A DNA stretch of 64,000 bases from Escherichia coli (lineage in GTDB: Bacteria; Pseudomonadota; Gammaproteobacteria; Enterobacterales; Enterobacteriaceae): NCBI RefSeq assembly GCF_051903065.1, contig NZ_CP178438.1; one strand, 5' to 3'. Position 1 is the stretch's first letter. Each line of letters starts with the position of its first letter. Shown piece by piece: positions 57,001 to 64,000 of the stretch. Made by a program: the position numbers.

Positions 57001-60000
57001 ATACGATTTAACATAATATACATTATGCGCACCAACATAAACCAAGGGAGAATCTAGTCGTTGGCGGTCATGATTGACCTGCTCATTAACAACGACCAAA
57101 CCCCATATCTTACTCTTACTTAATACCGTATTCTCGGCTTAACCGACCGTGCAACCTCAACACATTGGTTTCAACTGCCGTCACCACGTTCTCTGGAAAA
57201 TCTGTCGGTAATGAAGTCTTCACGTTATCCAGTGCTGCCGGAATCATTCTGGCAAAGTCACTCAGGATTTCATGCATCTGCACTTCCGGGAATCTCAGCA
57301 CCTTTGCTGTCGCCAAAAAATGTCGCGGATAAATTTTATCGATTGCCGTTTTTTTGCCTTTGGATGCGTTAAGCCCCATTGCCAGTTTGAGATCGCTGAT
57401 GTGTATTCCCGCGCCACCCAATACCGGAAATGCTGAAATGATGTCGTAAAATGGCGTGAGTCGATAACTGCCGCCAGCCTGAATAAATACGGAGAAGTTT
57501 TTTGCATGGCCATCCGTTGCGCCAATCAACCACTGAAAGACCTGGAATTTCATAAAATCATAGCGATCTTTCAGCGCCTCGCTGGACCCCATCAAAAAAG
57601 CCATGATCCGCGCGATGCCTGGGCCTCCATCTGATTCATATTTCACCGATGAAGGTAAACCGAATGTCTGACACATATCCTCCTGTGGCAAGCGAAGTAA
57701 AACCGTTCGCTCAGCATTCCAACGCCTGTCAAAACGTTCGACCGCTAACGCGCGCACATTTCCCGCTTTAATGATTTCTGCGTCCGGAACATTCAACCCA
57801 AGTTCTTTCGCCAGCAGCAGACAGTAATACTCATTATCAACGCTTTGGCTGAGATCGAGCGTCGCATTGGGCTGCCTGATTTCCCCAATCGGTAATTTAA
57901 TGATGTGCGTCGTCGGCGTTATTCCTTTCGGAATGCACCAGTCATTGCCTATTCTGAGCAGTGCTGTCTTCTCCTGTGCGCCAGCAACCGAGATGCGAAA
58001 GTCATTTTCTTCTCTAATCATGCCTAGCGGGATATCTGCTTTATAAGCCGTTAATACTTCTTCAAGTCTGGCTTCAGTAAGCTTTTCCCATGCCATTATC
58101 GGACGCGTTACGGTTTCGTCTTCGGGTATTAACGTCACGGCACCAACGCTGTCTCGCCCTATTTCTGACAATAAATCAAACGGTTGTCTGGATTTGGCAT
58201 GATAACGTTTAACGATCCGGTCACGTACAATCGGGCTATCGGGTAACAAGTTATCGAAGAAGTTAAATACGGCATCAGAGGTGATATTCCCCCTCTGCAA
58301 TGGCAGCGAAAGTGACAACGGTCTGGCATAACGGCTGGCTAACCACTCCGGTGCATACTTAAAGGTGTGCGCGCCGTTGGCTAACTTCGTTAACTCGCCT
58401 ACCCGCTGGTTGTTCATCCAAGTGACTAGTTTGGGCATTACCACTCCAGATCTTGCTGTTCTGTTGATTCTGGCGAGGCATTTTTCGTGTCGCATAGCGT
58501 CATTGAGAGTTCAAGCGACTGTAAAATCTTAAAAAATGTCGTGAGCGTGGTATTGTCAGGGTTGTTTTCGAAATTGGAAATCGTCGCCTGCTTAATGCCG
58601 ATTTTTTTCGCCAGCTCGCTCTGCGTCCAGCCATTTTGCTGGCGAACCAGTTTCATTGCATTCGCTAATTGCGTTGGGCTATAGATCTTCTGAAAGCTCA
58701 TCATGTCATACGTCCACAGCAAATTTATCCGCTTAAGGGGATATTATCAGTTTTATCCTTTAGTAAGGATAAAGTCAATCTGGAAACACATCTTATCCGC
58801 TGTACGGGATAAACGCTGCGATATCCGCGATCGCGGATAAAAGGGAGGCTTTAAAAGCTTTTTGAAGTTGGCAATATTAAGCCGCATGCCATCTCGACAT
58901 GCGGCTTATACTGTTTACCAGCTATATTTCACTCCCAGCATGCCCTGAGTATCGCTATAGCCTTTATCACCTAGTTGCACACCGACATTCCCCCACAGGC
59001 TAAGGTTGTTATTTACTTTCGCCTCAACCCCGGTACGTACTTCACCGAGATTACGCGCACCATCACGGCTTACGGTTTGACCATTCATCTTCACGGCGTA
59101 GACTTTGCTATTGTTGATCCAGTTCGCTTCAATGTAAGGCTGGAACTCACGCTGTTTACCATCGTCACGCTGGTGATGGCTATTCAGGTAGGTTTTCACC
59201 CCAAGTCGCGTTTGCACGTTTCCGTCACCTTCCGTTTCAATCCGTGTTCCGTCTTTCCGGGTATGGTCAGAATCTTTCACACCCATCCAGGTGATTTGCG
59301 CCTGTGGCTGGACGTACCAGGTATTCAGCGTCCCTTCGCTGCCGCTAAATGTTCCCGCTTCAAAGGTATACCCACCCTCAACAGAGGCCGTCACACCGCG
59401 AGAATCATAGTCGTCAGCAGAACGGTTATCGGAACTGACGCTGTTATCAAACCAGTTATACAGCGCCCAACTGTCAACATAAGCGCCGGTCTTATTCGAA
59501 TCGTTCTGATACCAGGTCGCGTACAGCCCAGCGCTGTAACCGCTGATGCGCCCATCCGATTTATAACCCACACGATTACTCTGAGTATTACTGTGCTGAT
59601 TGGCGTAGCCTGCCATCACGCCAAGATGCCAGCGATCCTGTGCGTTGCTACTCCACTGCGCCAAATCGCCGCCTAGCTGCAATACATACCGGTTAGCCTG
59701 AGTATTTAGCTGGCCGTCACCGGTCCTGAAACGTTCGTGCCCCCCGACATGACGCATCCACATACTGCTTGCCGAACCCTGAGAAAGCCGTGAATCTGTA
59801 TACTGCGGCTCACCCAGACGGTCGTGTAAGCGATGGCTAAACAGCGAGTTGGCTGCGGCAATGTTGCTGATATAGCTTCCGGCCTCCGGGCGATAAACTG
59901 ATGGGCCTTCCGGATCCACAACAGGGGGATTATTGATGGGATCGGGTGTATCCGCTGGCGTTACGCCGTCCCATTTACTGGTCAGATACCAGTTTTTCTC

Positions 60001-63000: not shown

Positions 63001-64000
63001 TTGACCTCCCACATCCCCCCCGTGGTGATGCTAACCTTCCCGACGCCGGTTTCTCCATAACCGAGTGAACTTCCTCCGTTGCTGACAACAAGCCCCTGAT
63101 TACTGATATTCATTTCGCCATGGCCGTCATAACCAAGATTAGTTCCGAGATTAGTGATAACGGAGTTCTTATCCTTAACAGTAATGTTGCCTGTGCCTGT
63201 TTCTTTCATCCCCGCAGTGATAATTCCCGAATCTACTTTGCCTTCACTCGAGACATTAAGTTCACCGTCGCCAGCATCACCGATATAGATATAGCGGAAA
63301 GCTTCGCCCGTTCCGAGGAAATTCCAATGCCCTTTATCGGTCACGTTGACGACACCGTGGGAACCGTCCTGAACGCCCACCAATGAATATTCTTTGTTAT
63401 TAATTAGTCCATTATTGGAAATATTGACTGCGCCATTACCGAAGTATCCATTATAGAGTCTGCGTACCGTGATGACAGAGTCTTGATCCTGCACATTCAG
63501 GGTTCCGACACCGGTGGCATTGCCACCGATAATCGTATTTTCAGCCGTAATCAGCCCACCCTCGCGAATAGTCGCCTCCCCAGTTCCTTGATTACCAATT
63601 TGAAATTCAATTGAGGAATCATTATTTTTTATTAGCCACTCGCCACCCTTTTCAACGACAACCTTACCATTACTGTTCGCTTGATATCCTAAAATGGCGA
63701 CTATTGAACTCGTGACGTAACCCTTATCCGTAATATTTAATGAGCCCGTACCGTAACTCCCTATTTCGAATAATTCGGTCGTCAAAACCGAGTCCTCTCC
63801 CTCAACATTAACCGTCCCGACGCCTGCAGCTTGAGTACCTAATCTTAAATAGCCTCCATCGACGTGACCCTTCTGTTTAATATTCAGCGTCCCCGTTCCG
63901 GATTGACCCACATTTAAAGGCCTTGCATTATTTCCGCTATCATACAATCGCCAGGTGCGGTGATGCTGCCAACTTACTGATTTAGTGTATGATGGTGTTT

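Follow-up and report, generated by a model that had tools for sequence, protein, structure and literature searches.

The chromosomal autotransporter gene of the ECSE_1600 family (NF011422), the Escherichia coli orthologue of K-12 yneO, is very probably dead in one clone through a few recent events in a definite order. The clone is represented here by a stretch of 64,000 nt from contig NZ_CP178438.1 (hereafter the window), in which positions 58915-63958 on the minus strand correspond to the 3' 5,044 nt of a 5,421-nt gene for a type Va autotransporter, situated between hipBA and lsrK. An IS1 element lies in the signal-peptide coding region, the DNA adjoining one end of the element has been deleted, and the remaining reading frame is broken at a shortened A-run. 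The order of these events can be read directly because a sister strain, ECNB21-M121, preserves the intermediate. The features of the locus, in window coordinates, are as follows.

58881-58909, minus strand: GC-rich hairpin 5 nt past the stop codon, a candidate intrinsic terminator between the autotransporter gene and hipBA
58917-58915, minus strand: TAA stop codon of the distal ORF
58915-62910, minus strand: distal ORF of the pseudogene, 1331 aa, equivalent to intact codons 476-1806 (C-terminal two-thirds of the passenger, autochaperone and beta-barrel)
58984-59763, minus strand: beta-barrel domain (PF03797), distal-ORF residues 1050-1309 (144.9 bits, E = 4.8e-42, profile positions 1-254 of 255)
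59641: private synonymous change at A1565, from the sister-strain alignment
60022-60342, minus strand: AC_1 autochaperone / pertactin-like junction, distal-ORF residues 857-963 (AC_1 92.4 bits, Pertactin 40.7 bits)
60629, minus strand: private substitution S1236F (TCC>TTC); no other non-synonymous change has arisen since the lineage parted from the sister strain
62877-63958, minus strand: proximal passenger fragment, starting within codon 126 at the IS1 junction and in the native frame through codon 475
62909-62913: frameshift site, A5 (T5 on the coding strand) where A6 is found elsewhere, a 1-nt deletion at gene nt 1422-1427 (codons 474-476)
63959-64000, plus strand: first 42 nt of IS1 (IRL end), beginning GGTGATGCTGCCAACTTACTGAT..., the remainder lying past the window edge

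Identity and architecture of the autotransporter gene

Homology to the intact allele of strain A30 (5,421 nt) equates window positions 63958-58915 exactly with gene nt 377-5421, a stretch of about 1,680 codons. The remnant is read as two overlapping minus-strand ORFs, the distal one and a 356-aa proximal ORF at 62877-63947, both of which are collinear with the NCBIfam model NF011422 (profile positions 476-1806 and 130-479, respectively). The intact allele scores 4134 bits against this model, the proximal ORF 745 bits and a 57-aa 5' fragment, considered below, 111 bits (positions 1-57), while the distal ORF alone, at 3057.6 bits, exceeds the curated cut-off of 2335 bits. Pfam domains found in the remnant are the autotransporter beta-domain, AC_1, Pertactin and PATR (34.1 bits), and a match to TIGR01414 reaches 411.6 bits. 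The junction region is matched by the autochaperone structures of IcsA (3ML3 and 5KE1), and the AIDA-I beta-domain (PDB 4MEE) matches intact residues 1345-1806 at 5e-87. The proximal fragment contains five copies of the T5SS/PEP-CTERM-associated repeat (TIGR04393, five stretches, against nine in the intact protein), has neither a start codon nor a signal peptide of its own, and continues after codon 475 with ten wrong residues before a stop at 62877-62879. The ORFs, NF011422, the Pfam matches and the homology to A30 thus agree with the initial annotation, made from the window alone, that this is a pseudogene of a large passenger-plus-barrel autotransporter of roughly 1,680 codons.

In other strains the intact protein comprises 1,806 aa and consists of an ESPR, a T5SS/PEP-CTERM-repeat passenger, PATR, AC_1 and a 12-strand beta-barrel; the passenger is predicted to be beta-helical from its matches to AC_1, Pertactin, PATR and TIGR04393. 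The remnant retains the 12-strand barrel domain and the autochaperone beside it and lacks a signal peptide joined to the passenger; judged from its sequence, it is a type Va autotransporter by descent and non-functional. In RefSeq the identical locus bears the annotation 'ECSE_1600 family autotransporter; frameshifted; incomplete; missing N-terminus'; IS1 comes next, and then an 'ESPR-type extended signal peptide' fragment. The locus is a case of ordinary gene decay, led by an insertion sequence in textbook fashion and already flagged as a frameshifted, N-terminally incomplete pseudogene; the useful outcomes of the present analysis are a corrected age, that of a young, one-clone pseudogene, the order of the events and the population context of the loss, and the locus has little significance otherwise. 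Antisense ORFs on the plus strand are also present inside the gene and are without support.

The K-12 orthologue yneO (b4696; formerly ydeK b1510 and ydeU b1509) occupies the same position, within the order ydeQRST fimbrial genes, yneL, hipAB, the gene and lsrK. It shares 97.7% nucleotide identity and the same architecture, and is also a pseudogene, but it is broken by one extra G within a G-run (codon 1318) and is free of IS1. As the lesions of K-12 and of the clone differ, the two inactivations are independent.

More distant relatives resemble the protein in the translocation unit. AIDA-I is alike over the C-terminal ~510 residues, comprising autochaperone, linker and 12-strand barrel, so that the mode of secretion, too, is of the type Va kind. 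In contrast, the AIDA-I model NF033176 gives 349 bits where its cut-off is 1200, and only profile positions 781-1286 align, leaving the passenger unaligned. No aah-like (Aah-type) heptosyltransferase gene adjoins the gene as it does AIDA-I, since at all loci inspected lsrK is the neighbour on the upstream side and hipB on the downstream side, and no Ag43 (Flu) model is found among the NCBIfam and Pfam matches at E <= 0.001. The earlier description of the gene as AIDA-I/Ag43-like is therefore appropriate for the C-terminal translocation unit, in its resemblance to AIDA-I, and not for the passenger or for Ag43. Salmonella MisL and ShdA and E. coli YfaL/EhaC likewise possess related translocation units, with matches in the C-terminal third of 472, 216 and 203 bits (the last for YfaL), but these scores lie well below the equivalog cut-offs of 1297, 2249 and 1459, and no relationship in sequence extends to the passengers. 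An adhesin role may be proposed for the gene by analogy only; we found no functional characterisation of yneO/ydeK in the literature, which lists it only as a 'putative autotransporter'.

Insertion of IS1 and displacement of the signal peptide

At the site corresponding to the window edge, strain 23CRST027 carries a complete 768-bp IS1 with an annotated transposase. Everything past window position 64000 is read from this strain, which is identical to the window over 47301-64000 (16.7 kb) but is a different genome; a BLAST comparison locates an extra IS1, private to the window, at 46555-47322 in ydeP. The IS1 near the autotransporter gene is positioned at gene nt 164-172, in the signal-peptide coding region, and in 23CRST027 its far side, outside the window, retains gene nt 1-172 (57 codons) together with the upstream region of 530 bp. 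This 5' fragment scores 57.8 bits against the ESPR Pfam model, compared with 51.3 bits for the intact allele, and reads as 57 native codons and a W before a stop within IS1. In the window strain itself, position 64000 is expected to be followed by the other 726 bp of IS1 and next by AACCGCTTAGTG..., the 172 nt that encode the ESPR and the upstream region of 530 bp. The annotated transposase gene and the autotransporter lie on opposite strands; transcription of the former therefore runs away from the remnant and toward the 5' ESPR fragment.

The presence of an IS1 at the 5' end, proposed from the 42 nt in the window, is thus upheld by the complete element in 23CRST027, and the missing 5' end, which it was suggested should be sought beyond the element, is found there. 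The accompanying claim that IS1 removed the signal peptide requires revision: the signal peptide was displaced, its 57 ESPR codons lying past IS1, and it was a later deletion that took codons 58-126. A reading of the remnant ORFs past IS1 revealed no alternative start that would supply a signal peptide, in keeping with pseudogene status.

ECNB21-M121 has IS1 at the same site and in the same orientation, with a copy of the 9-bp duplication AACCGCTTA (gene nt 164-172) on either side. This target-site duplication is absent around the IS1 of the clone because the adjacent deletion removed one copy: the 213 bp lost next to the element consist of gene nt 173-376 (204 nt) and one copy of the duplication, and the endpoint is the 63958|63959 junction, exactly at the IS1 end. 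The sister strain, which does not have the deletion, keeps the full 5,259-nt distal part of the gene. Among 5,426 complete genomes the contiguous right junction of IS1 occurs in three and the contiguous deletion junction in two. The arrangement resembles the classical IS1 adjacent deletions of the E. coli gal and lac regions in its 768-bp element, its ancestral 9-bp duplication, the loss of one flank from the IS end and the retention of the IS; nothing about it is unusual, and the target gene and the endpoints alone are specific to the clone.

The frameshift and the order of events

The initial annotation placed a frame break within 62877-62910, near an A5 run. This interval is the overlap of the two ORFs, with the causal A-run at its upper edge, and alignment with other alleles pinpoints the break as a change from A6 to A5; strains A30, NDM1, K-12 and ECNB21-M121 all have A6 at the site. 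The exact A5 allele was found in 2 of the 3,993 genomes that hold the segment (database of 5,426 complete genomes), namely 23CRST027 and 23CRST031, which come from the same study and place (Ecuador).

Since ECNB21-M121 carries IS1 only, the 9-bp duplication being intact, the flank undeleted and the run A6, the insertion came first and was followed by the deletion and the frameshift. In this series of events, IS1 entered gene nt 164-172 with a 9-bp duplication, so that the passenger was cut off from its promoter, start codon and ESPR. The IRL end of the element then generated the 213-bp adjacent deletion, probably through intramolecular transposition or through recombination with a transient second IS1. 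One base was subsequently lost from the A6 run of the gene, by then free of selection, truncating the residual frame at codon 476. The native promoter would now yield only a 58-residue ESPR peptide ending in IS1, and no surface protein would be expected, since the 1,680-codon remainder lacks a start codon, a signal peptide and an intact frame.

Two parts of this series have competing explanations. The 204 nt may have been lost by homologous recombination between two IS1 copies in direct repeat, the second at gene nt ~377, instead of by intramolecular transposition in one step; we consider this possible, if rather unlikely. To judge from the end product alone, the two routes give identical sequence, with one IS1, no flanking duplication and an unchanged right junction. 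The 5' end of the gene attracts IS1 repeatedly, and the IS1 of the clone differs from the sister copy at two internal positions, both of them known variants seen in other copies, which would fit a recombinant or converted element; as these two differences exceed the divergence of the flanks, some exchange between IS1 elements has taken place. However, junction searches of the 5,426 complete genomes revealed none with two IS1 copies in the gene, and IS1-promoted adjacent deletion is classically a single-step outcome. A different doubt attaches to the A5 run which, being confined to assemblies of one clone and lying in a homopolymer, may be a systematic sequencing or assembly error, in which case inactivation would be due to IS1 and the adjacent deletion only. 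The change is of 1 nt in a 6-nt homopolymer, its sole database carriers are two assemblies of a single study and place, and spans altered by +1, -1 or -2 nt are frequent in our spread sample, where some may be long-read artefacts. Nevertheless three separate assemblies share the allele, the window being a third genome with its private IS1 in ydeP, A6 runs are short for systematic error, and a frameshift following an IS1 knock-out is what neutral decay predicts; we therefore regard an error as very unlikely.

Age of the pseudogene

The lesions had been interpreted at the outset as two independent events indicating a long-standing pseudogene. We find three, which are ordered, the IS1 insertion preceding an IS1-dependent deletion and the frameshift. 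An old gene long in decay, with unrelated lesions as a sign of its age, would be compatible with the presence of more than one lesion and with the fact that K-12 and O157:H7 likewise carry the orthologue as a pseudogene, but the evidence makes such an age highly improbable. The lesions in K-12 and O157 differ from those of the clone, which occur in only 2-3 of 5,426 genomes, and two of the three are linked through IS1 and hence are not independent. The sister strain, which has IS1 only, is 0.06% diverged, with 3 substitutions within the gene itself and 7 over 11.3 kb. At E. coli clock rates in common use, the 7 SNPs would correspond to some 10^2-10^3 years, an estimate of our own with a broad margin of error. 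Repair of the frame leaves no stop codon in ~1,680 codons, and against intact alleles dN/dS amounts to 0.19-0.21; among the alleles of A30, NDM1 and K-12, the last of them itself frameshifted, it is 0.15-0.17. On these comparisons the pseudogene is young and limited to one small clone. Continued expression of the remnant as a protein truncated at its N-terminus, or its co-option, for instance by outward transcription from IS1 and use of the TTG at 63947, is scarcely credible. The 356-aa ORF does begin at this TTG, 11 nt from the IS1 junction, but it starts mid-passenger (MYDSGNN) with no signal peptide, the frameshift cuts it off ahead of the autochaperone and the barrel, both of which are needed for export of an autotransporter passenger, and the IS1 transposase is transcribed away from it.

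Recurrent decay across E. coli

A full-length span in frame is present at 26 of 60 evenly sampled loci (~43%), by a length criterion that was confirmed in all four of the annotation checks. Fewer than half of the sampled E. coli loci are thus intact, and the lesions are many and different. In addition to the single-base insertion of K-12, IS1 is found in other strains at gene nt 137-145, 532-540, 538-545 and 714-722 and upstream at -472 to -464, and two sampled strains have IS3-family insertions. As read from these genomes, the gene is lost repeatedly and independently across E. coli. Since the intact copy is in the minority of sampled loci, presence of the gene should not be scored as a functional adhesin. 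All six IS1 insertions near the gene 5' end share one orientation; we rejected an insertion bias as the explanation, as the junction queries and same-strand joining could find that orientation only.

It could be supposed that the AT-rich 5' end and upstream region form a regional hot spot for IS1, with at least six independent insertions in ~1.2 kb among complete genomes, and that selection against expression rather than neutral decay drives the frequent, polyphyletic loss. We consider this combined proposal unlikely. If true, the gene would represent a natural 'anti-virulence/antagonistic' locus, and the selective gains may include escape from recognition as an antigen or phage receptor, or a saving of cost.

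The 3' hairpin and the transcription unit

The hairpin noted initially just 3' of the stop was taken to indicate that the locus was once a self-contained transcription unit. A 61-nt segment folds at -26.8 kcal/mol (z = -6.1), none of 200 shuffled sequences folding as well, and the hairpin core is invariant in all nine other loci, the flanks being variable. Its tail, UUAAUAUU, provides a weak U-tract that lies partly within the stem. The hairpin was not called by a simple consensus terminator scan of 58400-59100, and a scan of 56000-64000 at Rfam gathering thresholds detected no RNA family. By its fold and conservation the hairpin is thus real, as proposed, and is a weak candidate as a terminator. 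Intact alleles have a 530-bp AT-rich intergenic region upstream, and the downstream hipBA genes are served by a separate promoter region that contains an operator; because of these two features and the conserved hairpin past the stop, the gene is plausibly monocistronic between lsrK and hipBA.

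Identity and chromosomal setting of the autotransporter gene

The remnant at 58915-63958 (minus strand) contains two overlapping open reading frames, which are collinear on one NCBIfam model, NF011422 "ECSE_1600 family autotransporter" (cut-off 2335 bits):

62877-63947, minus strand: proximal open reading frame, 356 aa; NF011422 profile positions 130-479, 745 bits
58915-62910, minus strand: distal open reading frame, 1331 aa; NF011422 profile positions 476-1806, 3058 bits

Pfam domains in the distal frame comprise PATR, a type-1 autochaperone/pertactin region and a complete autotransporter beta-domain. 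These matches bear out the large passenger-plus-barrel gene of about 1,680 codons recognised in the initial annotation, and by descent the remnant is a type Va autotransporter. Intact alleles (e.g. in strains A30, NDM1, 298 and ES1) span 5,421 nt, encode 1,806 aa and start with an extended signal peptide that Pfam recognises as ESPR. Among relatives by sequence, solved structures exist only for the AIDA-I beta-domain (4MEE, 5e-87, matching intact residues 1345-1806) and for the IcsA autochaperone. An "AIDA-I/Ag43-like" description is therefore apt for the translocation unit, which is AIDA-I-like, but not for the gene as a whole: the remnant scores 349 bits against the AIDA-I cut-off of 1200 with an alignment restricted to the C-terminus, and, unlike AIDA-I, has no aah-like gene among its neighbours, so AIDA-I identity was rejected. 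No Ag43 model was matched in the Pfam and NCBIfam searches, and MisL, ShdA and YfaL were discarded since each scores under its own cut-off. As no functional study of yneO/ydeK was found in the literature, the label "adhesin" is used here by analogy.

The window is chromosomal DNA of E. coli. Strain 23CRST027 (NZ_AP045789.1) matches it at 100% identity over 47301-64000, and in that strain the gene order is ydeQRST-type fimbrial genes, yneL fragment, hipA, hipB, autotransporter, IS1, ESPR fragment and lsrK. In K-12, the place of the autotransporter is taken by the pseudogene yneO (formerly ydeK and ydeU). The fragment between the fimbrial genes and hipA (56576-56830; 3877-4146 in the 23CRST027 locus) is part of an AraC-type helix-turn-helix gene, yneL in K-12. 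All strains inspected have it annotated as a pseudogene with an incomplete N-terminus, and it looks like a genuinely old pseudogene beside the young autotransporter one. Elsewhere in the window there is a sulfatase-like pseudogene fragment (approximately 44154-44708), and the interval from narU to an ompC-like porin gene (approximately 6895-9480; 7671-10254 in locus L007) contains an espR1 type III effector leucine-rich-repeat gene, leucine-rich-repeat fragments and a partial hypothetical gene.

Three lesions and their order

Aligned to the locus by BLAST, the intact A30 gene falls into three segments. Gene nt 377-5421 correspond to window 63958-58915 (98.9% identity, one gap), nt 173-376 are missing, and nt 1-172 are retained beyond the IS1, outside the window, where the missing 5' end had been expected and was found in 23CRST027. 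The sole gap reflects the loss of 1 nt from a homopolymer, which is A5 in the window (62909-62913) and A6 in A30, NDM1, K-12 and the sister strain ECNB21-M121 (on the coding strand, T6 at gene nt 1422-1427). Alignment with intact orthologues thereby pinpointed the frame break previously placed at 62877-62910, an interval that is itself the overlap of the two reading frames, with the causal run at its upper edge. Past F475 the shifted frame yields 10 wrong residues and then a stop at 62877.

The IS1 at the 5' end is likewise real; its first 42 nt form window 63959-64000, and the 23CRST027 copy is a complete 768-bp element whose transposase gene is directed away from the remnant. It had been said to remove the signal peptide. 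Since 57 ESPR codons survive past the IS1 (57.8 bits, Pfam), reading one extra codon into the element before a stop, the signal peptide is displaced rather than removed. Codons 58-126, comprising the signal-peptide end and the first ~60 passenger residues, were instead lost by deletion, and include what looks by eye like the cleavage region. This deletion of nt 173-376 is a third lesion, invisible from inside the window, where only two had been counted.

ECNB21-M121 shares the site and orientation of the IS1, and its element has a perfect 9-bp target duplication, AACCGCTTA (gene nt 164-172), on either side; this strain retains all of the distal 5,259 nt as well as the A6 run. IS1 insertion thus came first, with deletion and frameshift afterwards. 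The right IS1 junction is identical in the window lineage and ECNB21-M121, and in the window lineage the left flank begins at gene nt 377 without a duplication; therefore 213 bp were lost, beginning exactly at the IRL end of the IS1. Such a loss is characteristic of an adjacent deletion promoted by IS1 and equally of recombination involving a transient second IS1, the end product being the same for both routes.

A young inactivation in a frequently decaying gene

The lesions are rare. Of 5,426 complete E. coli genomes, three have the contiguous right IS1 junction and two the deletion junction, and the A5 allele is found in two of the 3,993 that contain the segment. Between the window lineage and ECNB21-M121 the gene shows 3 substitutions, and a stretch of 11.3 kb shows 7. 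With the frame repaired there are no stops over about 1,680 codons, and dN/dS between the window allele and intact alleles is 0.19-0.21, compared with 0.15-0.17 among the A30, NDM1 and K-12 alleles, of which the K-12 allele is itself frameshifted. These observations contradict the proposed long-standing pseudogene status: inactivation is young and restricted to one clone. Pseudogene status itself is borne out, the initial interpretation being only partly supported as a whole; for an already annotated, ordinary pseudogene, the analysis adds a corrected age and a corrected number of lesions.

The yneO-type gene decays often, via unrelated lesions. In K-12 a G-run at codon 1318 is one G longer, and O157:H7 alleles have an additional 8 nt and are annotated as frameshifted; in O157:H7 strain Z1766, hipA next to the frameshifted autotransporter carries an annotation as truncated at its N-terminus. 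Of 60 loci spaced evenly through the 4,365 matching records, a sample without phylogenetic weighting in which K-12 laboratory strains are over-represented, only 26 had an in-frame full-length span, and some ±1-nt spans may be long-read homopolymer errors. The length criterion agreed with RefSeq annotation in all four cases checked. IS3-family insertions were present in two sampled strains. Elsewhere IS1 is inserted at gene nt 137-145, 532-540, 538-545 and 714-722, and upstream at -472 to -464, giving, with the window lineage, six independent sites in different strains, spread over about 1.2 kb around the gene start, in a survey biased to the 5' end and to one orientation. The shared orientation of all six copies was not taken as a bias, as the queries could find only that orientation. 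GC content is 33% upstream, 43-48% in the 5' half of the gene and 51-55% in the 3' half. This composition fits the known preference of IS1 for AT-rich DNA, and the AT-rich 5' end and upstream DNA may constitute a regional IS1 hot spot.

Further IS1 activity in the clone

A second complete IS1 (768 bp, 46555-47322), flanked by the 9-bp target duplication CCATGCGGC, is inserted towards the 3' end of ydeP, some 160 nt from the stop of that gene. Its junction was found in none of the 5,426 complete E. coli genomes, and the element is missing in 23CRST027; the window therefore represents a third genome of the clone, one in which IS1 is still active. The autotransporter IS1 (11260-12027 in the 23CRST027 locus) differs at 2 positions from the same-site copy of the sister strain (8474-9241 in its locus), to which the ydeP copy is identical. 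This pattern suggests that the autotransporter copy underwent IS1-IS1 conversion or recombination later than the origin of the ydeP copy or of its parent. The copies at 46555-47322 and 63959-64000 form direct repeats separated by 17.4 kb and enclose most of ydeP together with the fimbrial operon, yneL, hipBA and the autotransporter remnant. If they recombined, everything in between would be deleted, the hipBA toxin-antitoxin locus with it.

The 3' hairpin and transcription unit

The hairpin noted just 3' of the stop proved real (58881-58909): a 13-pair stem with a 5-nt loop begins 5 nt past the stop codon, the 61-nt fold has -26.8 kcal/mol (z = -6.1), and the core is unchanged in nine other loci with variable flanks. 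It had no match in Rfam. Between it and the hipB start are four evenly spaced palindromes TATCC-N8-GGATA (58726-58839), which have the form of hipB operators; the window has 5 matches to this motif against 0.03 expected by chance. The hairpin, these downstream palindromes and the 530-bp AT-rich intergenic region upstream of intact alleles make it plausible that the gene forms a monocistronic unit. The suggested self-contained transcription unit stands to that extent, but the hairpin is poor in its U-tract and was not called by a terminator consensus scan. The fifth exact palindrome (53016-53033), inside the fimbrial usher gene and 5.7 kb from hipBA, could be a chance occurrence or a stray candidate HipB site.
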